Assembly (NCBI GenBank): GCA_964422295.1
Contig: CAYRAM010000002.1
Location: forward strand, 24,052 to 88,051
Length of the DNA stretch: 64,000 nt
Direction of reading: 5' to 3'
From: an uncultured Planctomycetia bacterium
GTDB taxonomy: Bacteria > Planctomycetota > UBA8108 > UBA1146
Both the position numbers and the translations under genes were made by a program. Position 1 is the stretch's first letter. Each line of letters starts with the position of its first letter. Below the pieces are notes generated by a model. It did not search any database, was not told the DNA's origin, and saw nothing but the letters and a program-made list of their open reading frames with translations. Below are positions 20,501 through 33,325 of this stretch, piece after piece.

Positions 20501-20647
20501 GTCCACGGCTTGTACACCGGGAACGATACTGATCGCACCGGAGCATTCATCATTGATCGCCTGGGAGAAAAGCGTTGTTGGAACAGTCACTGCGACGACG
20601 CAACTGGTCAGAAGCAGGATCCAATAGAGGGACATCAATGGTTTCAC
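17579..20647 (-). CDS. Large secreted multidomain protein with a duplicated N-terminal Cys-containing domain, a proprotein-convertase-type P-domain and a C-terminal dockerin-like module.
   Basis: Signal peptide 'MKPLMSLYWILLLTSCVVA'. Two repeats of about 110 aa are present ('NDECSGAI...DVWFSL...LTTCD' and 'HDECLDAR...DVWFRW...LKTCE'). A poly-Pro run 'PPPPPPPPG' follows. The P-domain-like segment reads 'SISIPDAGEPLEIPLLVSGD...LQLQTSHPDASQLIVELSAPNGATQVL'. The C-terminus 'CNEDGQVDLGDVLFLLGYQF...CDYNDDGTLDLSDGINLLGYLF...PFNCGEDPTDDNLEC' matches the dockerin-like module. Confidence 0.65.
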   Translation of the reverse strand: MKPLMSLYWILLLTSCVVAVTVPTTLFSQAINDECSGAISIVPGVQAVDTTQATTGTDPIPVDTCPGTFLGGAYFDVWFSLVVPETGLMTLTTCDTVNFDTDVIVYSGSCGNLTPIACHGDSPSCLVQGTTNSWNTVLVDIPVVVGETLLIRIGGWGDQDLGGGTFEVSISPPPPPPPPGIDHDECLDARSAVLGLNRLSTTGATTSPEPYSSITGCNALGQMVADVWFRWVSPGAGFISLKTCEIVDFDTDMVVYSGECDDLSQRACSGDESNCTLQGNGMPSYNSRIEDLSVLEGEVLHFRIGGWGGNDFGSGDLLLEYEPDVISTISATSVPGSWEVEVTAELSGECDALTFSAPGSETTVSGPFFPGDIVSETMPTAANPGTIEVCVTPLFSGQTGYAQCLSTAVLGPITVESCATPSSISIPDAGEPLEIPLLVSGDPAQSVLDVQLQLQTSHPDASQLIVELSAPNGATQVLHNMPQNAAGSGLNLTWWMSGSAPGQIFDDGGYWIPSSGNLYAFTGPLQIGTWILRISDEVAGQVGEVELACLRFFDTTSTPASGQDLIIGNANNVVQVAREGSIASFGMESVICNGGTDPLHWYANPDPRHPMMIFNMFRVDDDRIIQIGGSWAKHGWSSAQADACGFGCQPSPTNQETGIGCSDTYGASGNAAQINMGPRSEIEPWTGSFTWEGSYISQDTGPWNAIEERLSVEDADLDPQQNPGSQLLAEVYVIQPADVDPFTNHAWEPVSISGSPGGTWNIDMTAEAVNSPVQDAWPGAQVVTVSPPGIGDGHLYLASKVTDLGNGTWQYEYALYNLNFGAAIGAFEIPLDPGVEITSPIFHAPLTRSPFYSDTPWEFQQTATGLRWQTWDENSGSVANPLRWGWMYNFGFVADVAPVAAEVFMESQAASPFPILGAIIQAPPPPPDAPQFKRGLCNEDGQVDLGDVLFLLGYQFGGGQPPACFDACDYNDDGTLDLSDGINLLGYLFMGQSPPPDPGPFNCGEDPTDDNLECQEDLPDCL

Positions 20648-21937: not shown

Positions 21938-23119
21938 TCAGGAGTCGGACCTCTTCAATTCCTTCAACACGCAGGCTTCAATCTTCTGTCCCCTGCGCAG
22001 AAGAGCGAGGATCCACTCGCCCGCCTCGCCGGAAAATCTGCGTCGTAAGCGGGCAGGGTCCTCCTTGACTCCGCGGGTCTTGATACTGGCCGGTGCGCAT
22101 CCCTGCTGTCGGAACCATTCAACGATCTTCTTTTCATGCCAGCCCATCTGGGCGACAACTGAAAAACTTCTGAACCACGGGCTGGTACGCTGCTCATCCC
22201 CCGCCAGCCAACCGAGTCCCGGATACCACTCCCCTGCAGAGATTTCCGATTGCAGGTGTCCGATGAGGCCGGAGCGCTCGATTGCGGGGCGAGGTTCATG
22301 CAGAAATGCAGGTTGCTTCAACGAACTCTGTTCAAGAGGTTGTAACTCACCACTGATCGTCAAATCGAGATCGACGATGGTTGCCGAACGACGCGAGCCG
22401 GTGGCCAAATCCCCACACCACAAAGTTGCCTCCACGAGGTCAGATCCATCCTGGATCCATTCGACTTCTCCATGAGGAAGTTTTTCTGCATCGATGCCGG
22501 GGCCGCACTTCAATGCCATCGATTTGTGTCGGTCGATCAACTCTTCGATGACTTGGGGACCCGGGATCATGTCTTCATAGGAGTGGAGCCTGTTAGATCC
22601 CTGTCGTCGGGAAGGATCGAGATGCAGTGGATAGGGGGGGAGAGGGAGGGATTCAGCTGTTGCGACCAATGGGTGGATCTGCCCATGCTGAAGATGGCAT
22701 TGAGCGAGATTGAAGCGGGCCAACATCACTCTCAGCGGGTTGCGATCGACATAGATCAGGGGGCCCCCTTCTGCGAGAGCTGCGGCGTCGCTGCCAATTC
22801 CGCAACAGAGATCGATGATGGGGTCGTCGCCGACCTGTCGCCGCAACTTTGCAGCTTTATATTCGGCGACCGTGGATCTTGTTGCTTGTTCTGCCCCCTC
22901 CCGGTCCATGAGCCAGGAGTTCGCATTCTTGAGTCTTCTCTTCGACTTCCTCCTTGCATCCATCACCTCAAGAACGACAGAAACTTCCTCAAGTGTCCCA
23001 GCCTTGCGCAATCGTGATATGGCGGAGACGTCCCCGGGGGGGATGTCCTGGGCCAGCTCCAGAAGCGGAGACAGGTTGCCGCGGATGAGTTTTCTCCAAG
23101 CTTCATTCATGGCAAGCAT
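21938..23119 (-). CDS. Class I SAM-dependent methyltransferase (THUMP-like / RNA methyltransferase-like).
   Basis: SAM motif I 'IIDLCCGIGSDAAALA' and a downstream acidic motif II 'IYVDRNP'. Confidence 0.5.
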   Translation of the reverse strand: MLAMNEAWRKLIRGNLSPLLELAQDIPPGDVSAISRLRKAGTLEEVSVVLEVMDARRKSKRRLKNANSWLMDREGAEQATRSTVAEYKAAKLRRQVGDDPIIDLCCGIGSDAAALAEGGPLIYVDRNPLRVMLARFNLAQCHLQHGQIHPLVATAESLPLPPYPLHLDPSRRQGSNRLHSYEDMIPGPQVIEELIDRHKSMALKCGPGIDAEKLPHGEVEWIQDGSDLVEATLWCGDLATGSRRSATIVDLDLTISGELQPLEQSSLKQPAFLHEPRPAIERSGLIGHLQSEISAGEWYPGLGWLAGDEQRTSPWFRSFSVVAQMGWHEKKIVEWFRQQGCAPASIKTRGVKEDPARLRRRFSGEAGEWILALLRRGQKIEACVLKELKRSDS

Positions 23120-23166
23120 CCTAGAGAAGGACTCATCAATTGAAACAATTTGGTGTCAATTCACTT

Positions 23167-23182
23167 TGTTTGGCTTGCCAAA
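23167..23182. promoter_or_regulatory. Palindromic operator-like site GTTTGGCTTGCCAAAC (copy 1) in the divergent region upstream of the porin-like gene.
   Basis: Perfect 7-2-7 inverted repeat. It is the same motif as at 24540 and 30914. Confidence 0.4.
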
Positions 23183-23277
23183 CAACAGGGGTCAGATTTA
23201 CGCTCTCCCCATCGGCGTCATCCGAGGGTCGCCGGTTTCATTATTTTCAGGACAGGCAGCGAGAGGATCAGCGTTCG

Positions 23278-24417
23278 ATGACGATGCAAAACCTACTGAG
23301 TGGACTTGTTTGCGCACTGATGATCGTGGGAGCTTTCCAAAGTGTCGAAGCGCAGGCAGATCGGAATGACGGCCGCCCTGCTGCCGAAGATGATCGGGAT
23401 ATCCGGGTGGGTGGATACCTCGATCTTGAGTTGTTCATGAATGGAGATCGATTCGATTTCAAGCAGCATCGGTTGGTCCCCATGCTGGATGCCAACATCA
23501 GCGAGAATGTCAGTTTCTCGGCAGAAATCGAGTTTGAGTACGGGGGAGCGAGTGCAGCCCGTGGAGACGGGGAAACCAAGGTGGAGTATGCCTTCGCAGA
23601 TATTGACTTCGATGGCTGGACCCTGAGATCGGGAGCCATCCTGATTCCTCTGGGTTCGACCAATCTCTATCACGATTCTCCGATGCGGCAATTGACCCAG
23701 CGCCCATTTGTTGCAAGAACCATCGTTCCATCGACTCTGACCAGCGCAGGGATGGGGGGAGTCTGGGGAGCCAGTGATGGAACCTGGAATGCGGAAGTTT
23801 ATCTGGTCAACGGGTTTCAGGGGGAGGATGGAGCGGGGGGTTATCTGTTTGATGCCTCCAGTGGAATCCGTGGGGGAAGGCCGAGCCTGAAAACAAATCT
23901 TGGGGATCGTGCTGCGAGTTTTGTTGGCAGATTTGCCTATAGCCCCGCGTTGGGCACCGAAGTCGGTTTCTCGATGTGGAATGGCCCCTGGGATGAAGCA
24001 GGGGATCTGGATTTGGGTATCCAAGTCATCGACATCTCCACAGATCTTGGAACTTGGGCGGACTCCCTGGGGTCGACGATCCTCAATTTTGAAATGGGGC
24101 AGGTTTCCATCGATCGGGATGCTGCGGCGATCGCAGGAGGAGTTCCTGAAACACTGGGCGCCACCTCCCTGGAGATCTCAAAAAGGATGTTCCCTGATTT
24201 TGTCACTCGACTCTGGGGCGAAGATTCCTCCTGCGCATTGACGATACGTTGGGAAGAGGAGGACTTGTCTGGACCGGTCAAGAATCGCATGACTTATGGC
24301 TTCAACATGAGGCCCACCGACGAAACCGTGCTCAAATTCGATTACGAACAGGAATCTGTCGACGGCTCTGAAGATCCGGACGCCACCTTTATCGTCTCCG
24401 CTGCGACCTACTTCTAG
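23278..24417 (+). CDS. Putative outer-membrane beta-barrel porin-like protein.
   Basis: Signal peptide 'LLSGLVCALMIVGAFQSVEA'. The composition alternates hydrophobic and polar residues and is Gly, Asp and Asn rich. It has a C-terminal aromatic end '...SAATYF', typical of an OMP beta-barrel terminal Phe. Confidence 0.45.
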   Translation: MTMQNLLSGLVCALMIVGAFQSVEAQADRNDGRPAAEDDRDIRVGGYLDLELFMNGDRFDFKQHRLVPMLDANISENVSFSAEIEFEYGGASAARGDGETKVEYAFADIDFDGWTLRSGAILIPLGSTNLYHDSPMRQLTQRPFVARTIVPSTLTSAGMGGVWGASDGTWNAEVYLVNGFQGEDGAGGYLFDASSGIRGGRPSLKTNLGDRAASFVGRFAYSPALGTEVGFSMWNGPWDEAGDLDLGIQVIDISTDLGTWADSLGSTILNFEMGQVSIDRDAAAIAGGVPETLGATSLEISKRMFPDFVTRLWGEDSSCALTIRWEEEDLSGPVKNRMTYGFNMRPTDETVLKFDYEQESVDGSEDPDATFIVSAATYF

Positions 24418-24539
24418 GCGGGTTCGACGGCACCTGTAAAGGCATTCAAGGGGCGAATTGACCTCGAATCGCGGTGCTTCAGCCAATTTCAGGGGGGCTG
24501 GAGTAAGAATTCGATCAAAAGCATGGAGTCAAGTCGTTT

Positions 24540-24555
24540 GTTTGGGTTGCCAAAC
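24540..24555. promoter_or_regulatory. Palindromic operator-like site GTTTGGGTTGCCAAAC (copy 2) upstream of the FMN_bind-ApbE / feoB operon.
   Basis: 15 of 16 positions match copy 1. It lies about 80 bp upstream of the ORF at 24633. Confidence 0.4.
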
Positions 24556-24632
24556 GGTACCAATTCGGTTCTATTTGCCTCGGGTTCGCCGATCGGCGCC
24601 CCAAGGATTCATCCCCCCGTGAAAGTTGCTTC

Positions 24633-26270
24633 ATGCGGACCGCATCACACCGTGTCAATTCGACTCACGAACCGTTGTACCCGTGCCGGCTACTTCGGGC
24701 AGGGTCGCAATTGCTATGGGTGAGCATCGTGCTCTTTGCGACTCTGGGGGACACCCGTGCGATGGAATCGATGGTCCCTTCTGAATCGGAACGGAAACCC
24801 GGTGAACTGATTCTCCCCGAGAAGACGTCAGGGAAATTCGATCGAGAAATCCTGCAAGAATTGTGGCCAGGAGAAATCCTCGTCGAAAAGTGTATTGTTC
24901 CAATTGAAGGAGAATTGAAGAGGGCGATCGTTCAGAGATGCAGAGTCAAGACGACGGATCACCTCAGTACGATCTTCAGAATTCGCGATGCCAAGAGTCA
25001 GGAATTGGGACACGTGGTGATTCTTGATGAGATTGGCAAATATCGGCCAATCACCTTTTTTGTTGCCCTCGATGCAAGAGATCATGTCCTCGATCTTCAG
25101 GTATTGGTGTACCGGGAACATATTGGCAAGGAGATTGAGTCTGCACGATTCACACGCCAATTCAGGGATAAACGATCTTCCAGCATCCTGAAATTGCATC
25201 GGGATATCCGCAATTTGTCAGGGGCAACATTGTCGGCTCGCGCTGCAGTTCGAGCGGTGAGAAGAGCCTTGGCCACCGTGGAAGAGGCCGTGCGTGCAGA
25301 CGATGGGCTCCTCTGGCAACGCCATTCGGGACCTGTTCTCACTTACGGAGACCTCGGGGGAGGGGAGCCCTTCTCTGCCTCCGGGATGGAGCCATCGCCT
25401 CCCGCCGAGCAGGAAATCGGCAAGACCTCCGGCAGTACCGTGTCTTTCCGAAACGGTGAAGAGAAATTGATCCAGAGGGCGCGGCCGGCGATGGGAACGA
25501 TCCTGAAAATCGACGTTTTTGGAGATCACGCCCTCGCGGCAGTCGATGCCGCTTTTGCTGAAGTGGAACGCATCGAATCCCTTCACAGCCGTTGGCGACG
25601 CGACAGTGATGTTTGCAAGGTTGAGGCCGCTTCCACCGGGCAAGCCGTCAAAGTTTCTGCTGAGACGATCGAAGTGGTCGAGAGAGCGTTACAAATGTCA
25701 CGGGAGAGTGGCGGCGCTTTCGACCTGACTCTGAAAAAAGACGGATACAAATCGGTCAAGATCGATGCGCACGAGCAAACGATTACTCTGTTGAAGCCTG
25801 AGTTGATCCTCGACCTTGGCGGCATTGGCAAAGGCTATGCCCTCGATAGAGCGGCTGCCATTCTTGAATCTTATGGTTGCTCCAGTGCGCTCCTCGACTT
25901 TGGTGGACAGTTGCTCGCATTGGATCCTCCTCCGGGTGAAGAGGCGTGGCCAGTGGGTATCTTCGACCCACGTGATGGCAGGACGGTCTTGCATCAGTTG
26001 CCTCTGGTGAGGTCATCCCTCGCCACCACGGCGAACTATGAACGAGGAGACCACCTCGTCCATCTCCTCGACAGAGAATCAAGCCACCGTGTTCTGACCA
26101 CGTCAGTCATCTCTGAGAGTGCTACTCAAGCGGACTTGCTCAGTACCACGGTTGCTCTTCTCGATCAGGATCGGGCTCAGATGGTTCTCAACAGTCAGCC
26201 CGGTGCTTCTGCGGTTCTCCTGATTGAAGGAGAGGATGAGCCCAGGTTCATGGGTCGCTCCAAGCGCTGA
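24633..26270 (+). CDS. Membrane-anchored fusion of an FMN-binding domain (flavinylation target) with an ApbE-type FAD:protein FMN transferase.
   Basis: N-terminal TM 'LLWVSIVLFATLG'. The FMN_bind domain carries the flavinylation motif 'DIRNLSGATLSARA'. The C-terminal half has ApbE signatures ('ILDLGGIGKGYALDRAA', 'ALLDFGGQLLAL', 'TSVISESATQADLLSTT'). Confidence 0.7.
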   Translation: MRTASHRVNSTHEPLYPCRLLRAGSQLLWVSIVLFATLGDTRAMESMVPSESERKPGELILPEKTSGKFDREILQELWPGEILVEKCIVPIEGELKRAIVQRCRVKTTDHLSTIFRIRDAKSQELGHVVILDEIGKYRPITFFVALDARDHVLDLQVLVYREHIGKEIESARFTRQFRDKRSSSILKLHRDIRNLSGATLSARAAVRAVRRALATVEEAVRADDGLLWQRHSGPVLTYGDLGGGEPFSASGMEPSPPAEQEIGKTSGSTVSFRNGEEKLIQRARPAMGTILKIDVFGDHALAAVDAAFAEVERIESLHSRWRRDSDVCKVEAASTGQAVKVSAETIEVVERALQMSRESGGAFDLTLKKDGYKSVKIDAHEQTITLLKPELILDLGGIGKGYALDRAAAILESYGCSSALLDFGGQLLALDPPPGEEAWPVGIFDPRDGRTVLHQLPLVRSSLATTANYERGDHLVHLLDRESSHRVLTTSVISESATQADLLSTTVALLDQDRAQMVLNSQPGASAVLLIEGEDEPRFMGRSKR

Positions 26271-26304
26271 TATCAAGGGGACCATCAAACAGGAGGTGGA
26301 GTCG

Positions 26305-28245
26305 ATGAACAGGGAACAGGGCAGAGATACGCTCCGTATCTCCATCGCCGGAAATCCCAATGTCGGCAAATCGACCCTCTTCAATGCCCTCGTTTCGGGG
26401 CGGGCACGAGTTTCCAACTATCCCGGAATCACCGCCGAAGCATTAATCGGCAGAGGGACGTGGGGCGACGTCCAGGTTGAGGTCACCGATCTCCCCGGTT
26501 GTTACGGCATGCAACTCGATCTACCTGAGTCACGGCTCTGTAAAGAACACTTGTCTTCACCGCAAAGACCAGACCTCATCGTCAATTTGATCGATGCGGT
26601 CAGTTTGCGTCGCAACTTGAACATGCTTGCAGAGTGTCTTCAGGAAAATAGTTCTCACATCGTCATGGTGACCCGCACCGATGAGGCCCGACTGAGGGGG
26701 ATCGAGATCGACTTCGACCGCTTCAGCGAGTTGGTCGGCGTGCCGGTGATCGAGTTGGCTCACAGGAGTTCTCACAAGCAAGAACCATTGAAGGAGATAC
26801 TGCTCGAAGCAGCAAACTCTGCTCCTGCAAGGATCGAAGTGGGTGACCCCTCTGAGTGGGGTGACGATGTTGCTGCTGCAGTCACTCGACCCGTCAATCC
26901 CGAAGAAGCCCGCAAGAGGAGAAAGAGGGAGGATCGACTCGATGGTCTTTTGCTGCATCCGATTTGGGGATTGGGATCTTTTCTTCTCATCATGGGATTG
27001 CTTTTTGCCAGCGTATTTTGGTTGGCACAATTTCCCATGGAGTGGCTCGATACTTTCTTTGCGTCAGTCTCGTCGTGGGTGGGATCCAGTATGCCCGAGG
27101 GCGAGGTCAGGGATTTGGTCACGGAGGGAATCATCGGCGGAGTTTCGGGAACGCTGATTTTTCTGCCGCAAGTCTTGCTGCTCTTCTTTCTGATCAGTCT
27201 GCTCGAAGAAACCGGATATTTGGCCAGGGCGGCACTCGTTGCAGACCGCTGGCTGAGACCCTTTGGTTTGCCAGGTCACTCCTTCGTTCCATTGCTCTCC
27301 AGTCATGCCTGTGCCATCCCTGGCATCCTCTGTACCCGGCTCATCCCCGATCGCCGGGACCGATTGGCTGCGATTCTGGTGGCGCCATTCCTCTCATGTT
27401 CAGCGCGGTTGCCGGTATACCAACTCCTGGTGGGATTGCTCTTTCCCGGAAATCCACTCGTCGCAGGAATGGCGTTTGTGGGCTGTTATCTCCTGGGCGC
27501 ATTGGCCGCCATCATGACCGCGTTTCTGGTCCGTCAGTTTTTGCTTCCAGGACGCAGCCCCAATCTCATTCTTGAGCTTCCTCCCTTCCAGAGGCCATCG
27601 ATGTTGGGCTCCCTCCATACCGCTGGGCACCGGGGCTGGCTCTTCATCAAAAATGCGGGAAGCGTCATCCTGTTGATGTGCATCATATTGTGGTGGTTGG
27701 GGAGTTACCCAAAGGTGGGAGAGAGTCCCCAGGTGGTCGATTTACGTGCGCAAGCGGCGGCGACCGCCACAGCAGAGGACGCACTTGCGGTAGGGATGGA
27801 AGCGGATGCTCTTGCCGCAAAAGAGAGTACTTCCGCTTCATACCTGGGACAGATCGGAAAAACAGTGGAGCCGATCTTTGCACCGATCGGTGCCGATTGG
27901 CAATTGTCGATCTCGGTGATGGCGAGTTTTGCGGCTCGGGAAGTGTTCGTATCAGCCACAAGCGTTATTCTCGGCACAGGCGAGGAAGGTGATGCGCAAA
28001 CATTGATGGAGAAGATCGAAAATTCAACAAGAGACGATGGTGCACCCCTTCTGACTCCTTCAGCGGCAGCGGGACTGCTGGTGTTCTTTGTGCTCGCGAT
28101 GCAGTGTCTGCCGACCCTCGCAGTGACCCGCAAGGAGGCGGGTGGATGGAAGTGGGCATTACTGCAATTCTTGTGGATGAGTGTCCTTGCTTGGAGCTTG
28201 GCAGCATTGACCCGGGGTATTCTCAAGTTTTCAGGAGTGGAATAA
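26305..28245 (+). CDS. feoB: Ferrous iron transport protein B.
   Basis: G-domain 'ISIAGNPNVGKSTLFNALVSG', 'DLPGCY' and 'NLID' motifs, followed by the polytopic membrane domain. The ATG at 26305 is preceded by AGGAGGTGGA. Confidence 0.9.
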   Translation: MNREQGRDTLRISIAGNPNVGKSTLFNALVSGRARVSNYPGITAEALIGRGTWGDVQVEVTDLPGCYGMQLDLPESRLCKEHLSSPQRPDLIVNLIDAVSLRRNLNMLAECLQENSSHIVMVTRTDEARLRGIEIDFDRFSELVGVPVIELAHRSSHKQEPLKEILLEAANSAPARIEVGDPSEWGDDVAAAVTRPVNPEEARKRRKREDRLDGLLLHPIWGLGSFLLIMGLLFASVFWLAQFPMEWLDTFFASVSSWVGSSMPEGEVRDLVTEGIIGGVSGTLIFLPQVLLLFFLISLLEETGYLARAALVADRWLRPFGLPGHSFVPLLSSHACAIPGILCTRLIPDRRDRLAAILVAPFLSCSARLPVYQLLVGLLFPGNPLVAGMAFVGCYLLGALAAIMTAFLVRQFLLPGRSPNLILELPPFQRPSMLGSLHTAGHRGWLFIKNAGSVILLMCIILWWLGSYPKVGESPQVVDLRAQAAATATAEDALAVGMEADALAAKESTSASYLGQIGKTVEPIFAPIGADWQLSISVMASFAAREVFVSATSVILGTGEEGDAQTLMEKIENSTRDDGAPLLTPSAAAGLLVFFVLAMQCLPTLAVTRKEAGGWKWALLQFLWMSVLAWSLAALTRGILKFSGVE

Positions 28246-28250
28246 TCACA

Positions 28251-28367
28251 GTGACCTTCGATGATCCGCAGTTCATATTTGTGACGCTATTGGCCATTGT
28301 TGCAGTGGTAGTTCTCTTATGGAGACGGGGTGGTGGTTCATCCGACGATTGCGGTTCCTGCTCTTAA
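28251..28367 (+). CDS. FeoB-associated Cys-rich small membrane protein (tentative).
   Basis: About 38 aa immediately after feoB: one TM 'FIFVTLLAIVAVVVLLW' followed by 'RRGGGSSDDCGSCS'. GTG start with a modest RBS. Confidence 0.35.
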   Translation: MTFDDPQFIFVTLLAIVAVVVLLWRRGGGSSDDCGSCS

Positions 28368-28464
28368 TGAAACGTGATTCCTCGCGGTCGTATGGTATCG
28401 TATCCGTGGTCAGGTTGCCCCGAGGGGCCTGATCTCAGCAAGTTGATATTGAGAAAGGAATCCC

Positions 28465-29619
28465 ATGCTTCCAATTAGGTTAGTGAATCTCGCCTTTGCC
28501 CTGTTGTTACTGGGCACTGCGGCGTTGATTGCAGCGCCTCCTGATTCTGCAGACAAAATCGATCAGAAGCAGGAAGAGGAGGCAAAAAAGGCTTTTGATT
28601 CCATCTACGAAAAGATGAATGAAGCACAAGATGCTTACTACAAGCCCTTCATCGATGCCCGGGAGAAGGGATTGAGCCCGGAGGAAATGGACAAAATCGA
28701 ACTCGATCCGGAACTTGAGCCGGTCAAAATCGTGGGTCCGGAACTGTTGCGTGGAATCGAGAAATTTGCCGGGACTGAGGCCGCACTCCAGGCTTGTGAC
28801 CGGCTGATGGGGATGGCAGGCAGAAGCGATACCCAGGGGTGGATGGTCGAAAAGGTAGTCGCTGTTCTCAAAGCCCATTATCTCAAGAATCCAAACTTGT
28901 TGAATGTGGTACGCTTCGCCCATTACGGCAGTGACGCTCCGGTGATGAAGGAGTTCCTCGGTACAGTGGTGAGTGAGTCCCCCCATAGGGAGGTACAGGC
29001 CGCAAGCTGCTACTCGCTGGCAAAGATGCTGGGCAAGAAAGAGGAAACCCGGGGTGAAGGTTTGGCGATGCTGAAAAAGGTGCAAACCGACTTTGGGGAT
29101 GTCCCATACAGGGGGGATCGTGTCTATGCGGACAAGGTCAAGGGCGACCTCTTCGAAATGGAAAATCTGCAAATCGGATGCGTGGCACCGGAAATCATCG
29201 GCAAAGAGATCTCAGGAAGTTTAATGCAGCTTTCTGCCTTCAGGGGCAAAGTGGTGCTACTCGATTTCTGGGGAGACTGGTGAGGACCTTGCAGGGCGAT
29301 GTACCCACACGAGCGGTCGCTCGTAGAAAAATACTCAGCAGATACATTTGCCATCGTCGGCATTAATTCCGACTCCACGATTGAAAAAGCCAGGGAAGTG
29401 GTCAAAGAGAACAAACTCAACTGGCTCAACTTCTACGATGGAGGCACCGATGGTCCCATTGCGACGCGGTGGAATGTCAGTGGTTGGCCAACGATCTACC
29501 TCATCGATGCCAAAGGAGTGATTCGATTCAAGGATGTTCGTGGCAAGAAGTTGGATGCGGCCATCGAGGTGCTGTTGAATGAAACGAAAGCTGAAAAAGC
29601 AGTAGAGGCTGGCAAGTAG
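28465..29619 (+). CDS. Selenocysteine-containing TlpA-like thiol:disulfide oxidoreductase with a U-G-P-C active site. The TGA at 29281-29283 is read as Sec.
   Basis: ORF 28465..29283 ends '...GKVVLLDFWGDW', then TGA. Reading on in the same frame gives 'GPCRAMYPHERSLVEKYSADTFAIVGINSDSTIEKAREVVKENKLNWLNFYDGG...GWPTIYLIDAKGVI' (ORF 29299..29619 is in the same frame). This reproduces the TlpA consensus 'FWASWCGPCR', with Sec at the first Cys. Signal peptide at the N-terminus. Confidence 0.7.
29309..29324 (+). promoter_or_regulatory. Candidate SECIS apical hairpin with a GGUC loop, 25 nt downstream of UGA 29281.
   Basis: acgagc-GGUC-gcucgu: a 6-bp stem with the loop GGUC, the same apical-loop sequence as the E. 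coli fdhF SECIS. A lower helix is possible with the 5' flank. Confidence 0.35.
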
Positions 29620-29647
29620 TTTTCGCATCTTCGAATCGCGATCAGGT

Positions 29648-30334
29648 TTATCCTGGAGATTCTTCTTTCGAAGAATCTCCAGGATTTTTTTCGTCGGTTC
29701 CAAAACCCATTGGGCACCCACCTGAGGAGGATTTCTCATCTGAGTTCTTTTTAGGAAACAGGGGAGCTTGGGGTGGAGGGTCAGCTTCGCCTTTTCCACG
29801 CCTGCGAAGTGGTGCCCACCACAGTTCATCGAGACAAGCCAAAGAACCGAGTGAGAGTGTCAGCAGCAGGAGTGATCCACCGAGAATTTGGGAAAAGAGA
29901 GCCAGGGTACTCCCCGAGGCGATCATCAAAGGCGAAAAGAGAAGCCCTGCCAGGCTGCCATATCCCGTAAACGCGAGGGTGACCTTGATGGAGGTCGACC
30001 AGGGAGTCAGTTCAAAGAGATGGAGGATGACGAAGAGGAGCATCGCCAAAGAAAAGATGTGATCGTGGATGAATGCGAGCAATTCACGGGGTGTCTTCTC
30101 TGACATCATTTCTTCCGCATCGAGATCGTTCTCATTGCCGAGAACCCATTCACGGGCATTTTCAGGTGTAAATCCTCCCGCACTGCTGGAGTATTGGAGA
30201 GTTGCCACAAAGCACCCTCCAATGACCGATAGCAGAAAGAGTGTCAGCAGCCAGCGAGTGGAGGTGTTTGCTCGGGCGAGAGTGAAACCGGCCTGTTTGT
30301 AGAACTGGGTCAAGTCAGCGCTCCCCATCCTCAC
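29648..30334 (-). CDS. Hypothetical polytopic membrane protein.
   Basis: About 5 predicted TM helices. No family was recognised. The 3' end overlaps the terminator hairpin. Confidence 0.4.
   Translation of the reverse strand: MRMGSADLTQFYKQAGFTLARANTSTRWLLTLFLLSVIGGCFVATLQYSSSAGGFTPENAREWVLGNENDLDAEEMMSEKTPRELLAFIHDHIFSLAMLLFVILHLFELTPWSTSIKVTLAFTGYGSLAGLLFSPLMIASGSTLALFSQILGGSLLLLTLSLGSLACLDELWWAPLRRRGKGEADPPPQAPLFPKKNSDEKSSSGGCPMGFGTDEKNPGDSSKEESPG
29653..29693. terminator. Rho-independent terminator after the selenoprotein gene.
   Basis: cctggagattcttctttcgaagaatctccagg followed by attttttt. Confidence 0.55.
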
Positions 30335-30389
30335 GATGACAGATGACTTTGATTTTGGTCAGGACTGATAGGCTCAATGAGAATGCCGC

Positions 30390-30623
30390 TCAGCAATTCA
30401 GAGGAACAACTCTCAGTGTCGCTGCGATGTCTTCGCTGAGTCCCAGCCGTTGGCCTTTGATCTCAAGGACACAGGTACCGGAGTTGTGACAAACACGCAG
30501 TTCACAATCGTCACACAATCCCATCGATTCAAGGAGAGGGCGTTGATCGTGGGGAATCGATTCGGCGATGAGTCTACCGCTTTCACCCTGCTGCATATCG
30601 AAGAGTGAACGCATGCGGGACAT
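30390..30623 (-). CDS. feoA: FeoA-family small protein.
   Basis: An SH3-like FeoA pattern 'LFDMQQGESGRLIAESIPHDQRPLLESMGLCDDCELRVCHNSGTCVLEIKGQRLGLSEDIAATLRVV'. The start was taken at the internal ATG (MSRMRSL). Confidence 0.55.
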   Translation of the reverse strand: MSRMRSLFDMQQGESGRLIAESIPHDQRPLLESMGLCDDCELRVCHNSGTCVLEIKGQRLGLSEDIAATLRVVPLNC

Positions 30624-30913
30624 CGTCTCGTTGGCTGCGGCTTCAAGGTTTGAGGCCCCGGAAGCGGGTGTGGGCTGGGAATGAGGGTAATAAGGTGATT
30701 CTTGATCGGCCTTCATGACTCTCCAGCAAAGGTGACTTCAGGTACTACCAACAGTGTCCGCCTCGACACAGAAACACCCATCGCTGCCGAAAGGTATCTT
30801 CCCTGATCGGATAGGAGACTTGTTATCGAAGGGGAGCGGCATTAACCTGCCCTCCGGTTTACAAAGTCGCCCAAGAGAGTAGTTGTACCGGTTGTTTAAG
30901 GAACCGTCAACCT

Positions 30914-30929
30914 GTTTGGGTAGCCAAAC
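30914..30929. promoter_or_regulatory. Palindromic operator-like site GTTTGGGTAGCCAAAC (copy 3) in the divergent feoA / DtxR-family promoter region.
   Basis: 14 of 16 positions match copy 1. It sits just upstream of the predicted regulator start, consistent with autoregulation. Confidence 0.4.
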
Positions 30930-30942
30930 GAATGGGGTCTCA

Positions 30943-31503
30943 TTGATTGATTGGCGTGAGTTTGACCAGAATCCGGTGAGCCACTCCGCTGCCCACCACC
31001 TGACTTCGATTCAGCAGTTGCTGGATGAGCAGGGGTACGCGCGCGTCTCAGATGTTGCCCGCAAACTGGGGATCACCCGGGGGAGTGTCTCGGTGACCCT
31101 GAAAGGTCTGAGGCAACGGGGTCTCGTGATCGAGGATCAGCACAAACATCTGGGACTCTCGGATGAGGGGCTGAGAATTGCCCGTGGGATTCACACAAAG
31201 AGGATCCTCTTCAAGGCATTTCTCCAGGACTCCTTGGGTCTGCCTGCTGAGTTGGCAGAGTTGGACGCTTGCAAGGTGGAACATCTGGTGAGCGATGTGA
31301 CTGCGGAGGCTTTGGCAATCTATATGGAGCGTAATGGAATCGGCGAGGGTGCTTCCAAAGACCGCAAGGAACAAGTAAAGGCATTGGAAGTCAGTATCAA
31401 AGATGGTCGCATCGATGCTTTCCCTGGTGAAGATGTTGAGGCATTTTCAGAACAGTTGCAAAGCAGGAGTGATGCGGGAAGCAAGGGGCAAACAGATGAG
31501 TAG
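30943..31503 (+). CDS. DtxR/MntR-family metal-dependent transcriptional regulator.
   Basis: 'HHLTSIQQLLDEQGYARVSDVARKLGITRGSVSVTLKGLRQRGLV' matches the DtxR winged-HTH, followed by a dimerisation/metal-binding region. The start is uncertain (TTG 30943 or GTG 30976). The ORF track starts at 30883, but that would place the palindrome inside the ORF. Confidence 0.7.
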   Translation: MIDWREFDQNPVSHSAAHHLTSIQQLLDEQGYARVSDVARKLGITRGSVSVTLKGLRQRGLVIEDQHKHLGLSDEGLRIARGIHTKRILFKAFLQDSLGLPAELAELDACKVEHLVSDVTAEALAIYMERNGIGEGASKDRKEQVKALEVSIKDGRIDAFPGEDVEAFSEQLQSRSDAGSKGQTDE

Positions 31504-31945
31504 TTATTCCCGTGAAGACGCTTTGCGTCGTTTGAATGAGTTGTTGGCCGAAGAGTTGGAAGCATCGATCCGTTACTTGCATTTGAGTACACTCGTGCAG
31601 GGCATCGACCGACTGGTGATTCAAAAAGTTCTTCAAGAGAATCACGAGGAGACGATTGAGCATGCGCAACAGGTTTCAGAAAAGATCATTCAGGTCGGTG
31701 GAGTACCACAACCGAAAATCAATCTGGAGTTGACCGGGAACAAGTGCACCGGGATCGAAGCTCTTCAGATCGCACTGCTCTTTGAGCAGGCTGCCTTGGA
31801 CGCTTACGGAGAATTTCTTGAAGTAGTCGAGGGCAGCGGGGATGTGATCCTCGAAGAATTCGCTCGTCAACAAGTGGCAATCGAATCGGAGCATGTCTCA
31901 GAATTGCAAATGCTCATAGGAGATACCACCGTTGGCAGCAAGTGA
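31496..31945 (+). CDS. Ferritin-like diiron-carboxylate protein (bacterioferritin/Dps-like).
   Basis: Ferroxidase-type motifs 'EELEASIRYLH', 'ENHEETIEHAQ' and 'ESEHVSEL'. It is about 149 aa. Its ATG overlaps the regulator stop, so it forms an operon with the DtxR-family gene. Confidence 0.6.
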   Translation: MSSYSREDALRRLNELLAEELEASIRYLHLSTLVQGIDRLVIQKVLQENHEETIEHAQQVSEKIIQVGGVPQPKINLELTGNKCTGIEALQIALLFEQAALDAYGEFLEVVEGSGDVILEEFARQQVAIESEHVSELQMLIGDTTVGSK

Positions 31946-32420
31946 TCGTCCAGGTGGACTGACGGCACTGACAGTGCTCAATGGCTTCTTTGCTCTCAAT
32001 GTCGGCGGGACGACGATCCAGCGCTTCATCACCTCCTATGAGCTTATGAATGTCGCCGAATCAGGTGTTCAGGGGAGCCCCTGGCGCAGGAGATATCTTC
32101 AATCCCTCCTGGATGAAGGTCTCAGTGCATGGGAGCTGCAAGTTATCGCACTCATAGGTTTGGCTGCCACATTGCTCTTGCTGGTTTCGATTTGGGGATT
32201 GCTGAAACGCAGTAACCTGATTGGGAGGTGGCTTGGCACCCTGGGAGCAGTATCTCTCGCAATCTTTTACCTGCTCAACATCAATTGGCTTCCCGAGACG
32301 ATTTTACGGGGAAGCGGTTTGTCGATCGCACGCCAACTCTTTTATCCTGTTTTTCTGATCTTCATGCTCCATGTGATCTTCCGCAGGGACTTTCTGTTTC
32401 AACCGGGGAGGTCCGGATGA
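31932..32420 (+). CDS. Hypothetical small membrane protein (start uncertain).
   Basis: Hydrophobic segments are present. Its stop overlaps the ATG of the downstream permease (ATGA). A TTG start overlaps the ferritin-like gene. An alternative start is the ATG at 32046. Confidence 0.3.
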   Translation: MAASDRPGGLTALTVLNGFFALNVGGTTIQRFITSYELMNVAESGVQGSPWRRRYLQSLLDEGLSAWELQVIALIGLAATLLLLVSIWGLLKRSNLIGRWLGTLGAVSLAIFYLLNINWLPETILRGSGLSIARQLFYPVFLIFMLHVIFRRDFLFQPGRSG

Positions 32421-33325
32421 GTCAGGCAAGGCACATCCTGCTACACGCCAAGAAGTTGATCGTCCATTCCCTGCGAACCGGGTCCGGGGTGGCTTTCATT
32501 TTTCTGACGATTCTTATTGGTCTCTCTTTGGCCAATTTGTCGATTGCCCCCGTGGAATTGGAATTGACCACCGCCGATGCGTTCAGGGAAAATGCCAGCC
32601 AGGCGATCGGTATCGCTCTCGCCACCGCTACTCTGCGTTTGGGAGCAGACGATCAGGATTTTCTATCGCGTATGGAGACAGGGGATTTGATCGATCTGGG
32701 GATGTGGGCACGATTCCTCGTGATCGAAAATCCGATGTTACTGTCAATCACAGTTCTTTTATTGGGACTGGCCTTGCCGATTCTGTTGCCACTGGGATCC
32801 TTTACTGCCATCTCCAGCGATGTCCAACACAGGACAGTACGCTATCTTCTTCCCAGAACCACGCGCTATTCCTTATTGCTGGGGCGCTGGTTGGGAACCC
32901 TGATTTTGTCGTGGGTGTTGATTTTTCTGCTCTTGTCATCGGTCGTCTTTTATCTGTCGATCATGATCACGACAGAATCCACTGAATCGATGATTCCATG
33001 GGCGGCCCGGTGCCTGCTGGCGCTCTGTTGCCTATCGATGCCTTACGTGTCATTGGGGATCCTGTGTTCGGCGACATTCAGGGTACCGATGGTTGCGCTG
33101 CTGGCCGCAGTGGGAGTCACTGTGGGGGTTCCACTCCTCGCTCTCAGTCTGCAAGAGGCGTGGGAACCTTTGGGAAAGATTCTCTACATTCTTCCATGGG
33201 GATATTCCCATGAGTTGCTCTCACCGGATGCAGGCAAAGTCAGTCGCGCTGTTCTCTATTCATTGGGACACAGTGCCCTCTTCATGACTCTGGCGGCGTG
33301 GAAATTCAGGAGGGCGGATCTATGA
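32417..33325 (+). CDS. ABC-2 type transporter permease.
   Basis: Six hydrophobic helices. The ATG at 32417 is preceded by GGGAGG. It is translationally coupled to the ATPase (ATGA overlap). Confidence 0.6.
   Translation: MSQARHILLHAKKLIVHSLRTGSGVAFIFLTILIGLSLANLSIAPVELELTTADAFRENASQAIGIALATATLRLGADDQDFLSRMETGDLIDLGMWARFLVIENPMLLSITVLLLGLALPILLPLGSFTAISSDVQHRTVRYLLPRTTRYSLLLGRWLGTLILSWVLIFLLLSSVVFYLSIMITTESTESMIPWAARCLLALCCLSMPYVSLGILCSATFRVPMVALLAAVGVTVGVPLLALSLQEAWEPLGKILYILPWGYSHELLSPDAGKVSRAVLYSLGHSALFMTLAAWKFRRADL

Follow-up and report, generated by a model that had tools for sequence, protein, structure and literature searches.

In this work we have analysed a 64,000-nucleotide stretch of a contig from an uncultured Planctomycetia bacterium (the window), and specifically the genes around feoB. 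A sequence-only reading had placed there, instead of feoA, a self-contained flavinylation module in which an FMN_bind target and its ApbE transferase form one chain. The features are collected in Table 1. Pfam, AF2 and Foldseek agree that target and transferase are fused in the protein encoded upstream of feoB. Both domains score above their Pfam gathering scores: FMN_bind (PF04205) covers residues 136-213 with 26.3 bits against 22, and ApbE (PF02424) covers the C-terminal part in two stretches with 164.3 bits against 25.6 (E 5e-48); the NCBIfam models RnfG and ApbE both match as well. The AF2 model (mean pLDDT 84.5) has a hydrophobic N-terminal helix (residues 18-38), two confident domains, FMN_bind (67-240) and ApbE (279-541), and a disordered linker (243-274), the inter-domain geometry being uncertain (pTM 0.60). 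In Foldseek comparisons with the PDB, the N-terminal domain matched NqrC and RnfG (E 5e-5 to 1e-3) and the C-terminal domain FmnB, Ftp and ApbE (E 9e-21, TM 0.72-0.75). The protein had been called membrane-anchored; the hydrophobic helix is present, but cleavage as a signal peptide is just as plausible, short classical signal peptides being common among the homologues.

Table 1. Features of the feoB region, in positions of the window
Feature	Position	Strand	Remarks
Operator-like palindrome GTTTGGCTTGCCAAAC	23168-23183		Upstream of porin gene; one mismatch to the 24540 and 30914 copies
Porin_O_P-like outer-membrane beta-barrel gene	23278-24417	+	Likely start ATG 23278; listed ORF starts at TTG 23140
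Operator-like palindrome GTTTGGGTTGCCAAAC	24540-24555		78 nt upstream of fusion ATG
FMN_bind-ApbE fusion gene	24633-26270	+	545 aa; Pfam, NCBIfam RnfG and ApbE, AF2, Foldseek, PDB sequence matches, family alignments
Thr199 codon, predicted FMN attachment site in LSGATLS	25227-25229	+	Invariance in family alignment
feoB	26305-28245	+	646 aa from ATG 26305; TIGR00437; Pfam FeoB_N, Gate (twice), FeoB_C
Exported thioredoxin-fold protein gene (trx)	28465-29619	+	Last gene of + operon
Aq_1264_TM (PF27139), 4-TM membrane protein gene	29648-30334	-	Downstream of feoA, co-transcribed with feoA here
Terminator-like hairpin	29650-29685	+	16-bp stem, then T7; ends fusion-feoB-trx transcription unit
feoA	30390-30716	-	PF04023, 27.9 bits against gathering score 23
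Operator-like palindrome GTTTGGGTAGCCAAAC	30914-30929		feoA/dtxR divergent region, just upstream of likely dtxR start
DtxR/MntR-family metalloregulator gene (dtxR)	30943-31503	+	Likely start TTG 30943; Pfam Fe_dep_repress and Fe_dep_repr_C
Ferritin-like gene	31496-31945	+	Overlaps dtxR end; PF00210, 64.4 bits
NapH-like polyferredoxin gene (PF12801)	34272-36197		6 kb downstream

The two motifs quoted earlier lie where they are expected, LSGATLSARA at 25215-25244 and LGGIGKGYALD at 25815-25847, and the context of the flavinylated threonine is conserved, with G197, A198, T199 and S201 invariant in 38 of 38 family members; in the AF2 model helix 199-221 begins with T199. The domain resembles NqrC and RnfG of Na+-NQR and RNF in its FMN_bind fold (Foldseek matches 4xhf and 7zc6_G, NCBIfam RnfG), the SGAT threonine motif, a conserved upstream lysine (K180, within QFRDK) and an N-terminal export or anchor helix. 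It differs from them in that Arg193 stands at position -6 of the D-x-x-[ST]-G-A-[ST] motif, where the canonical Asp is absent, in that no NQR or RNF subunits are encoded near the fusion gene, and in that the transferase, a stand-alone ApbE in those systems, is here joined to its target. By sequence, its own motifs GKYRPITF, VLVYRE and RQFxxK define a separate subfamily.

The start of feoB is most likely the ATG at 26305, 35 nt past the fusion stop, and not the overlapping TTG at 26224; the full-length alignment of FeoB to its relatives begins at this Met, and the protein scores 388.6 bits against TIGR00437 (cut-off 315.65). The fusion gene and feoB are co-oriented and feoA is separate on the other strand, as had been read. 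In the trx gene the U of the motif FWGDW-U-GPC is an in-frame TGA (29281-29283), followed on its 3' side by a hairpin with a GGUC loop (29309-29324); TGA and hairpin are kept in three relatives (L001, L084 and L087), and the product is probably a selenoprotein. Among NCBIfam models the regulator, whose homologues are 176-185 aa long, gets its highest scores from MntR (65.8 and 47.2 bits), ahead of DtxR (34.1 bits), neither family reaching its cut-off, and because of this its metal may be Mn. It carries a C-x-x-E-H metal-site motif (DACKVEH), which we take to resemble Cys102/Glu105/His106 of DtxR and not the Glu-x-x-Glu-His of MntR. The ferritin-like gene is syntenic in all close relatives, and the NapH-like gene is syntenic in close relatives as well.

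A putative DtxR operator had also been proposed. As a motif it is real: the porin gene, the fusion gene and dtxR are each preceded by a 16-bp palindrome, GTTTGGNNNNCCAAAC, a putative repressor site, and the same sites are kept in relatives. The copies at 24540-24555 and 30914-30929 follow the consensus GTTTGGGT[AT]GCCAAAC, and with up to 3 mismatches on both strands 7 matches were observed against 0.53 expected. At least 8 relatives have the operator at an orthologous site, upstream of the porin gene in L001, L084, L087, L095, L099, L101, L104 and L108, in the feoA/dtxR region in L001, L084, L087, L095 and L108, and upstream of the fusion gene in L001 (position 7907). Among the relatives' loci compared, no operator was found at cassette loci without feoB.

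The fusion protein is not self-contained, because two partners stay with FMN_bind and ApbE across phyla, gene orders and fusions, the porin-like gene directly upstream and Aq_1264_TM. The porin passes the gathering score of PF07396 (23.3 bits, threshold 20.9); its N-terminus looks like a signal peptide and its last residues are ATYF. Homologues lie directly upstream of the fusion gene or beside split genes in L001, L006, L007, L011, L029, L030, L077, L084-L089, L091, L108, L112 and L115. PF27139 is present in all Aq_1264_TM homologues, and AF2 models the protein with four TM helices (mean pLDDT 85.9); it adjoins or is fused with ApbE in many lineages. The FMN_bind subfamily, ApbE, the Porin_O_P-like protein and Aq_1264_TM co-occur across Planctomycetota, anammox bacteria and 'Deltaproteobacteria', in the order porin-fusion-Aq_1264_TM in L085, L086, L088, L030, L007 and L112, as fusion-Aq_1264_TM in the Brocadiaceae L004 and L090, and split in other orders in L011, L091 and L092. 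In L115 and L116 Aq_1264_TM is fused to ApbE with FMN_bind encoded separately, L115 having two Aq_1264_TM paralogues side by side, and in P0247, P0277 and P0332 it is likewise fused to ApbE and not to FMN_bind. Porin, flavoprotein and four-helix membrane protein form a conserved, previously undescribed set.

Adjacency to feoB is confined to one marine Planctomycetota clade, whose fusion proteins are about 50% or more identical, and within it feoB, feoA, dtxR and the ferritin-like gene all accompany the cassette; members at 36-39% identity have the cassette and no feoB. Outside the clade, an iron transporter is lacking within 7-9 kb of most cassette loci, and for this reason iron may not be the ancestral substrate. 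In one deltaproteobacterial MAG the triad is preceded by an FTR1 iron permease fused to cytochrome c domains. Is FeoA then replaced by the flavoprotein? FeoA is retained. In relatives, porin>fusion>Aq_1264_TM stands beside <trx<feoB<feoA, and the loci of this ancestral type (L108, L110 and L114) have an intact cassette beside feoA-feoB-trx and dtxR-ferritin, with the same palindrome in front of the porin gene and again in the feoA/dtxR region. The window's gene order is this layout plus one inversion, which interleaved two neighbouring operons, and feoA is therefore "missing" upstream of feoB. The trx gene is paired with feoB in both arrangements, and the hybrid cassette/feo operons have been retained after the inversion across a clade spanning about 50-100% identity.

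We think it somewhat probable that the window holds a metal-regulated iron-acquisition island of marine Planctomycetota, in which a flavoprotein module and a Feo unit are interleaved and reduction of Fe(III) feeds FeoB. The first unit would be the extracytoplasmic module of outer-membrane porin, FMN_bind-ApbE fusion and Aq_1264_TM, and the second FeoA-FeoB with the exported thioredoxin-fold (seleno)protein. The ApbE domain would use FAD and Mg2+ to place FMN on Thr199, the flexible 30-residue linker probably allowing this in cis, and Aq_1264_TM, as an obligate membrane partner, would most likely supply the covalent FMN with electrons of membrane or cytoplasmic origin. If the local DtxR-type repressor binds the shared operator, iron limitation would derepress the genes under its control; Fe(III) species would arrive via the porin and be reduced by the reduced FMN domain, and FeoB would import the resulting Fe(II). 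Weighing against this reading are Arg193 in place of the canonical Asp, the deletion and the diverged loop of the ApbE domain described below, the MntR scores of the regulator, the scarcity of iron transporters at cassette loci elsewhere, and Aq_1264_TM, for which neither a relative of known function nor a significant PDB match by fold or sequence was found.

Could Aq_1264_TM serve flavin supply instead? It might bring FAD to the periplasmic ApbE, as a small dimeric exporter or as a docking site, the cassette then being a complete "flavinylation kit" whose electrons come from elsewhere, for example from the NapH-like polyferredoxin or the thioredoxin-like selenoprotein. ApbE requires periplasmic FAD, a flavin-provisioning transporter is often encoded in flavinylation clusters (PMC11334425), the direct fusions of Aq_1264_TM are to ApbE, and its 4-TM size with the paralogue pair of L115 suggests a dimer like that of small multidrug transporters. 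His90 and His92 are conserved in 61 of 62 sequences, and these two near-universal histidines are too few for a two-haem wire, a model further weakened because His105 is Arg in 18 of the 62. The synteny of the NapH-like gene in close relatives also fits, although in distant relatives that gene is not near the cassette. We nevertheless regard this reading as unlikely: similarity to known transporter families was looked for in Aq_1264_TM and none was found, and the HxH pair, Lys117 (62/62), Glu170 and Trp172 would fit a redox cofactor or quinol site too. Cytochrome b561 matches, weak and repeated (6/62 members, best E 0.0023), point the opposite way. A still less likely reading takes the cassette as a general periplasmic redox module whose substrate is not iron but Mn(III/IV), Cu(II) or an organic acceptor entering via the porin, the Feo link being a clade-specific co-localisation. 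The scarcity of iron transporters at loci outside the marine clade and the MntR scores of the regulator speak for it, and some FeoB paralogues transport Mn. Against it stand two independent iron-transporter associations (FeoB and FTR1-cytochrome c), the coupling of the regulator to a ferritin-like gene, the DACKVEH motif, which we take as DtxR-like, an operator shared, in either gene arrangement, by cassette and feoA/dtxR region, and the persistence of the hybrid operons.

The remaining alternative concerns the ApbE domain, which had been described as full. Its catalytic residues are kept, but about 25 residues that would join the first half of the fold to the second are absent, and the alignments split into two stretches in both Pfam and PDB comparisons. 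This deletion is common to the window's clade and its 36-39% identical neighbours, and in the closest subclade the HxxDPxTG loop (HIVDPRTG) has diverged to HLVHLLD. Because of the deletion and the lost DPxTG loop, the domain might be a degenerate scaffold, non-catalytic or FAD-hydrolysing, with Thr199 flavinylated, if at all, by a separate ApbE from another part of the genome; Ftp of T. pallidum, a FAD pyrophosphatase according to PDB titles, has the same fold. We consider this the least likely of the readings. In the family alignments every member has H474, D501 is retained in at least 90%, and position 466, Thr here, is Ser in the majority; these are the equivalents of H257, D285 and S241 of V. 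cholerae ApbE (PMC12052999). Across 38-86 sequences the GGIGKGYALD and MGT motifs show little or no variation, and the same holds for the catalytic His and Asp, which argues for purifying selection. The domain is modelled with pLDDT above 90 and superposes on active ApbEs at the TM scores given above, and the aromatic W321 aligns with residue 55 of T. pallidum Ftp (chain 4xdt), a position which presumably tells transferases from the T. pallidum pyrophosphatase. Architecture and context are the same in a sister subclade (L086) that lacks the deletion.

A flavin-based part in iron assimilation, as the sequence-only reading has it, fits the literature on flavinylation-linked iron uptake, while ferric reductase activity and the electron donor are what we infer. 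Meheust et al. (2021, eLife) described clusters in which apbE and an FMN_bind gene accompany the transporter VIT1 and membrane proteins of the MsrQ-like, PepSY-like or NQR/RNF-like types, as well as P19/FTR1 clusters with an FMN_bind gene, and such combinations with a ferrous transporter were proposed to be assimilatory iron reductases (PMC8238504). The locus is like these in bringing together apbE, an extracytoplasmic FMN-binding substrate, a membrane protein and a ferrous-iron transporter, with a thioredoxin-like protein as a parallel or companion redox element. It differs in its membrane partner Aq_1264_TM, which is outside their defining families, in its transporter, FeoB (FTR1-cytochrome c in one distant relative) and not VIT1 or P19, in having FMN_bind and ApbE in one polypeptide, and in the porin as a conserved member. 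In the accessible parts of that paper 'Feo' occurs only in the reference list, and its accessible supplements contain no mention of FeoB, PF02421 or PF07396. The only described case that we found of ApbE fused to its own target, with guaranteed one-to-one cis maturation, is the trypanosomatid fumarate reductase, whose N-terminal ApbE domain serves a target flavinylated on Ser (PMC12052999); that enzyme is eukaryotic and cytosolic or glycosomal, whereas here ApbE is C-terminal, the protein exported and the target a small electron carrier. Reduction of Fe(III) outside the cytoplasm with import of Fe(II) by FeoB is also described for FsrB of Bradyrhizobium, where periplasmic ferric reduction feeds FeoAB (PMC10760861), and for VciB of Vibrio cholerae, a ferric reductase feeding Feo (cited in PMC8238504); both belong to the haem-type or PepSY-type integral membrane reductases, are not known to carry covalent flavin, and share no homology with the proteins of the window. 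DUF4405 and FezC, flavinylation-associated cytochromes (PMC11334425), resemble Aq_1264_TM as uncharacterised membrane proteins recurrently clustered with apbE, with conserved histidines in TM helices and possible dimer-formed haem sites, yet Aq_1264_TM has four TM helices and not six, only two near-universal histidines and no Pfam DUF4405 match in any of its 62 members, and haem binding by it is putative. Taken with these precedents, the locus most likely encodes an iron-regulated periplasmic flavoprotein system that reduces Fe(III) and gives Fe(II) to FeoAB, and it would be a variant within the known flavinylation-linked iron-assimilation systems.

The gene that precedes feoB encodes an FMN_bind target and its ApbE transferase in one chain, as a sequence-only reading of this locus had claimed, and Pfam, NCBIfam, AlphaFold2 and Foldseek all agree on this. 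FMN_bind (PF04205) was matched at residues 136-213 with 26.3 bits (gathering score 22), and ApbE (PF02424) in two stretches with 164.3 bits against 25.6 (E 5e-48). NCBIfam gave RnfG-type matches in the N-terminal half (RnfG models, E 7e-8) and ApbE in the C-terminal half, and the ApbE domain matched ApbE, FmnB and Ftp sequences of the PDB at E 5e-20 to 5e-12. In the AlphaFold2 model, for which 86 homologues were the input (mean pLDDT 84.5), an N-terminal hydrophobic helix (18-38) is followed by two confident domains, 67-240 and 279-541, joined by a disordered linker (243-274), and the pLDDT of the second, the ApbE domain, is mostly above 90. Foldseek aligned this C-terminal domain with the crystal structures of FmnB, Ftp and ApbE at E values down to 9e-21 and TM scores of 0.72-0.75 (FmnB 7esb, E 9e-21, TM 0.74; Ftp 4ifu; V. 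cholerae ApbE 6nxi, TM 0.75), and the N-terminal domain with NqrC (E 5e-5) and RnfG (E 1e-3). The fused architecture is common in the Planctomycetota, with both domains in about 85 of the best 120 matches; a genome-contig search with the fusion alignment gave, among the matches listed, largely stand-alone ApbEs that are no more than 30% identical, and about ten loci were useful. Is the protein anchored in the membrane, as had been proposed? The N-termini of the homologues (38-sequence alignment) resemble signal peptides, and since many of them are short and classical, anchoring is not established for the fusion: its own first residues may form a signal anchor or may be cleaved off as a signal peptide. 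We considered a frameshift in the gene and rejected it, as the reading frame in the window is intact and the apparent deletion is common to dozens of homologues. A 100%-identical JGI protein of 360 aa (P0001) ends in a frameshifted tail at a run of six A, so another assembly of the same organism differs there by one base, owing either to a sequencing error or to a slippage-prone site.

Features of the island and its flanks (window coordinates)
Feature	Position	Strand	Remark
Secreted protein gene	17579-20647	-	1022 aa; proprotein-convertase P-domain, poly-Pro linkers, dockerin-like C-terminal motif
Palindrome, one mismatch	23168-23183		upstream of porin gene
Porin gene	23278-24417	+	Porin_O_P-like
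Palindrome	24540-24555		78 nt upstream of fusion ATG
Fusion gene	24633-26270	+	545 residues
LSGATLSARA	25215-25244	+	FMN_bind domain
A6 run	25733-25738	+	codes LKK
LGGIGKGYALD	25815-25847	+	ApbE domain
feoB, best start (ATG)	26305	+	
trx	28465-29619	+	thioredoxin fold
In-frame TGA of trx	29281-29283	+	
Hairpin 3' of TGA	29309-29324	+	GGUC loop
Aq_1264_TM	29648-30334	-	PF27139, four TM helices
Tail of Aq_1264_TM	29648-29760	-	C-terminal extension
Convergent hairpin	29650-29685		perfect 16-bp inverted repeat + T7
feoA	30390-30716	-	
feoA, regulator and ferritin-like genes	30390-31945		
Palindrome	30914-30929		feoA/dtxR divergent region, just upstream of probable dtxR start
Three genes after the ferritin-like gene	31932-34284	+	162-aa membrane protein, ABC-2-type permease (named from homologues), ABC ATPase
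NapH-like gene	34272-36197	-	polyferredoxin membrane protein (Fer4_5, PF12801)
Second thioredoxin-like gene	36301-37308	-	Thioredoxin_7 + DsbH-like

The two peptides quoted in the sequence-only reading translate exactly. In an alignment of 38 full-length homologues, 22-64% identical to the window fusion, the context of the predicted flavinylated Thr is preserved as S196-G197-A198-T199, with G197, A198, T199 and S201 invariant in all 38, and the SGAT motif is also kept in the split-gene FMN_bind relatives of loci L091, L092, L115 and L116. Elsewhere in the FMN_bind domain GK..PIT (135-141) and the R161-E162 of YRE are invariant, and Y160 is at least 90% conserved. The Asp at -6 of D-x-x-[ST]-G-A-[ST] is not kept: the fusion has Arg193, the position varies across the family, and Asn194 (-5) and Asp191 (-8) are conserved in its place; this Asp has been termed strictly conserved, yet its exchange for Ala had only a minor effect (PMC12052999). 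The ApbE domains of the same 38 homologues share M287-G288-T289, D364, D394, K400-G401 and H474 without exception; H474 is still invariant in an 86-sequence alignment which includes stand-alone ApbEs, and D501 is conserved to at least 90%. In the alignment W321 takes the place of residue 55 of T. pallidum Ftp (chain 4xdt), and an aromatic side chain at this position sets FMN transferases apart from the FAD pyrophosphatase of T. pallidum. By alignment with FmnB and Ftp, H474 corresponds to H257 (the general base), D501 to D285 and T466, a position that is Ser in most family members, to S241 of V. cholerae ApbE, which are its catalytic His, Asp and Ser (residue roles after the review PMC12052999). 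The domain had been described as a full ApbE; its family profile, fold and catalytic residues are those of an ApbE, but the core is incomplete: about 25 residues, the VGPLxxLW segment (FDxT-VGPLxxLW...-G), are absent in the window clade, and both the profile and the PDB alignments break into two stretches. In addition, the canonical loop that follows the catalytic His, HIVDPRTG (HxxDPxTG), has the sequence HLVHLLD here. The conservation of the other ApbE residues argues that the domain is under selection, and Mg2+-dependent FMN transfer, with covalent FMN on Thr199, is predicted.

The gene after the fusion is feoB (TIGR00437, 388.6 bits against 315.65), with the N-terminal G domain, Gate domains and FeoB_C recognized by Pfam and NCBIfam; its start is best placed where full-length alignments to relatives begin. 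As had been noted, feoA is separate, on the other strand and not directly 5' of feoB, and Pfam places it in a group with a DtxR/MntR-family regulator and a ferritin-like gene. Could the flavin module have taken the place of feoA, as the wording "instead of feoA" implied? In the window, porin, fusion, feoB and trx on the plus strand converge on Aq_1264_TM and feoA on the minus strand, and dtxR and ferritin follow on the plus strand. This order is common to close relatives from marine metagenomes, including TARA, whose fusion proteins are 51-68% identical and among which are MAGs named Planctomycetia bacterium TMED53 and Planctomycetota. In loci L108, L110 and L114, porin, fusion and Aq_1264_TM are followed, after a gap, by trx, feoB and feoA on the opposite strand and then by dtxR and ferritin; the Aq_1264_TM of this lineage is 52% identical and the canonical feoA-feoB order is kept. 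Their layout is the ancestral cassette beside a canonical feoA-feoB operon, and one inversion, from Aq_1264_TM to feoB, turns it into the layout of the window. Since this single inversion accounts for the arrangement, the flavin module is no replacement of FeoA; two adjacent operons have swapped partners. The hybrid operons, porin/fusion-feoB-trx and feoA-Aq_1264_TM, are kept across a clade spanning about 50-100% identity. There are no inverted repeats at the inversion breakpoints, as is expected of an old event. The locus is an unusually clean case in which an inversion exchanges the partners of two co-regulated operons and neither is lost. The plus-strand transcription unit ends at the convergent hairpin, which lies inside the last codons of the minus-strand Aq_1264_TM frame, directly 3' of trx, and is probably the terminator of the convergent operons. 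The trx frame itself is interrupted by an in-frame TGA, which takes the place of the first Cys codon in the redox motif (FWGDW-U-GPC). L001, L084 and L087 share this codon and the hairpin 3' of it in their nucleotide sequences, and the product is a probable selenocysteine protein. The trx orthologue of the L108 lineage is a single frame in which CxxC has been lost altogether (FRGDDEPLP). Neither tRNA-Sec nor sel genes were seen in the window, which holds no tRNA of any kind.

The putative DtxR operator was also recovered, as a 16-bp palindrome, GTTTGGGT[AT]GCCAAAC, which occurs at three sites in the window and is conserved in relatives, although its role as an operator is a prediction. No further copies with up to two mismatches exist in the 64 kb, and at up to three mismatches both strands together gave 7 matches against 0.53 expected. 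It stands at orthologous positions in L001, L084, L087, L095, L099, L101 and L104, and the ancestral-type L108 has it 5' of the porin gene and between the divergent feoA and dtxR; cassette loci without feoB lack it. The DtxR-family domains of the local regulator were confirmed by Pfam; in NCBIfam it scored highest with MntR models, though under their cut-offs. The palindrome half-site agrees at 6 of 9 positions with the DtxR/IdeR box, TTAGGTTAG, and the C-x-x-E-H motif of the regulator resembles the primary metal site of DtxR. Weighing the box-like half-site and this motif against the MntR-leaning scores, we consider an iron-responsive repressor likely but not proven. A scan for sigma-70 promoters, with 1 site against 4.8 expected, was uninformative, and Rfam had no match in 22000-33000, hence there is no FMN riboswitch or other RNA element in that interval. 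The three genes 3' of the ferritin-like gene keep their synteny in every close relative and may be part of this metal regulon. The gene for the secreted protein, whose dockerin-like motif is typical of Planctomycetota, is likewise a conserved neighbour of the island among relatives, but seems to have no connection with the flavin module.

The module had further been called self-contained, and here the reading did not hold, since Aq_1264_TM and usually a porin travel with FMN_bind and ApbE across several phyla. The order porin-like gene, fusion, Aq_1264_TM (PF27139) recurs without feoB in L085, L086 and L088, whose fusions are 36-39% identical, and in L007, L030 and L112, and the anammox Brocadiaceae (L004, L090) have the fusion followed by Aq_1264_TM. 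Split genes are found in L011 (ApbE, porin, FMN_bind, Aq_1264_TM), in L092 (FMN_bind, ApbE, Aq_1264_TM) and in a deltaproteobacterial MAG, L091, where the order FMN_bind, ApbE, Aq_1264_TM is followed by one other gene and a porin. In the proteins P0247, P0277 and P0332, Aq_1264_TM is fused to ApbE through one extra TM helix, and at the loci of such fusions FMN_bind, of the subfamily seen in the window, is encoded by a gene of its own. Through reshuffled gene orders and different fusions, in several phyla, the same components stay together; this argues strongly for a joint function of FMN_bind, ApbE and Aq_1264_TM, in most cases along with the porin. Directly 5' of the triad in L091 (2891-5422 of that locus) lies the gene for an 843-aa protein with two cytochrome c domains and an FTR1 iron permease, an unusual architecture which may need the flavin module for iron redox cycling.

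What does Aq_1264_TM do? The family is small, with only 264 clusters (50% identity) at E <=0.001 in a search of 1.84 billion representative proteins. AlphaFold2 modelled it (mean pLDDT 85.9) with TM helices at 24-51, 82-108, 114-139 and 144-181; the charge distribution suggests that both termini are cytoplasmic, and the extra TM helix before ApbE in the fused proteins agrees with this. Of 62 aligned sequences, 61 have His90 and 61 have His92, two residues close to the periplasmic end of TM2. Phe94 and Lys117 occur in all 62, and there is almost no variation at Pro135-Trp136 and Glu170-x-Trp172; His105 is found in 42, and in 18 of the 62, mostly anammox, it is Arg. Weak matches to cytochrome b561 were given by 6 of the 62 members (best E 0.0023), no relatives were detectable by fold or sequence among solved structures, and an assignment to DUF4405 was rejected, as there is no Pfam DUF4405 match. 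A protein that binds haem or quinol and lets electrons enter the system would agree with these data, a role analogous in logic to that of the DUF4405 and FezC cytochromes beside apbE (PMC11334425), and the data allow equally well a small dimeric FAD exporter or a docking protein for ApbE. Adjacent paralogues, an ApbE-fused copy with HxH and a degenerate stand-alone copy without it, lie next to a porin-like gene in L115 (4548-6682 of that locus) and suggest that Aq_1264_TM acts as a dimer. The cytoplasmic C-terminal extension with C-P-[ML]-G-[FHY] occurs only in the feoA/feoB-linked clade, is absent from relatives without feoB, and might be a Feo contact or a metal site.

A bolder reading, which we regard as rather improbable, is that Aq_1264_TM is a new class of membrane redox protein and itself a substrate of ApbE. 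It comes from the periplasmic loop just after TM1, where R-[ST]-G-[FL]-[ST] resembles a flavinylation motif (Gly in 60 of 62 sequences, the final Ser/Thr, Thr56 in the window, in 51) and N-caps a short helix in the same structural context as Thr199 of FMN_bind, and from the direct fusion to ApbE. If true, a minimal two-flavin relay would run from Aq_1264_TM-FMN to FMN_bind-FMN, as between NqrB and NqrC in Na+-NQR, and with the dedicated porin would link the inner membrane electrically to Fe(III) located at the outer membrane or outside it, as a flavin-based counterpart of porin-cytochrome conduits for reductive iron acquisition in marine Planctomycetota. Electrons might also reach the FMN domain from elsewhere: the NapH-like protein, preceded by the second thioredoxin-like gene and lying ten genes from the cassette and 6 kb past the iron island, belongs to a known flavinylation-associated electron-transfer family and is thus an alternative donor. 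The pair is syntenic in close relatives, but in distant ones the NapH-like gene is unlinked to the cassette. Aq_1264_TM is the most valuable lead: as it repeatedly adjoins ApbE or is fused to it, its function is directly testable.

Meheust et al. (PMC8238504) have proposed assimilatory iron reductases linked to flavinylation, and the locus is a variant of these systems, in which apbE and an FMN_bind gene accompany a ferrous-iron transporter; here feoB is directly 3'. None of the membrane proteins that define those systems (MsrQ-like PF01794, PepSY PF03929/PF16357, NapH-like PF12801, DsbD PF02683, NqrB-like) is a conserved partner here, where PF27139 takes this position. The window differs from them also in the FeoB transporter (FTR1 in one relative), in the conserved porin and in the fusion of target with transferase; otherwise, an ApbE fused to its own target has been described only for trypanosomatid fumarate reductase (PMC12052999). 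The text supplements of the eLife paper PMC8238504 have no FeoB, PF02421 or PF07396 entries, and full-text searches of open-access papers turned up none that connects ApbE to FeoB or that deals with Aq_1264 or the cassette. The physiological logic matches that of FsrB with FeoAB (PMC10760861) and of VciB.

Our best-supported model is as follows. Provided that the shared operator is the target of the local DtxR-type repressor, iron limitation would derepress porin, fusion-feoB-trx and probably also feoA-Aq_1264_TM; the exported fusion would place FMN on its own Thr199; its flavin domain would receive electrons via Aq_1264_TM and pass them to Fe(III) species entering via the porin, and FeoAB would import the Fe(II). 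A ferric-reductase role of the fusion is plausible but inferred. Of the original interpretation, the fusion, motif, operator and iron context stand; self-containment and the replacement of feoA do not.

A natural bacterial fusion of ApbE with its target is useful as a self-labelling flavin tag, and PF27139 is a new candidate family of membrane partners for flavinylation biology. With the proposed reductase, reductive iron uptake in Gram-negative-type cells would gain a route that relies on flavin. Much of the ocean is iron-limited, and oxic seawater contains little Fe(II), the sole form that FeoB imports. The use of Feo by abundant marine Planctomycetota would be explained if FeoAB were coupled to a dedicated periplasmic flavin reductase under iron control.
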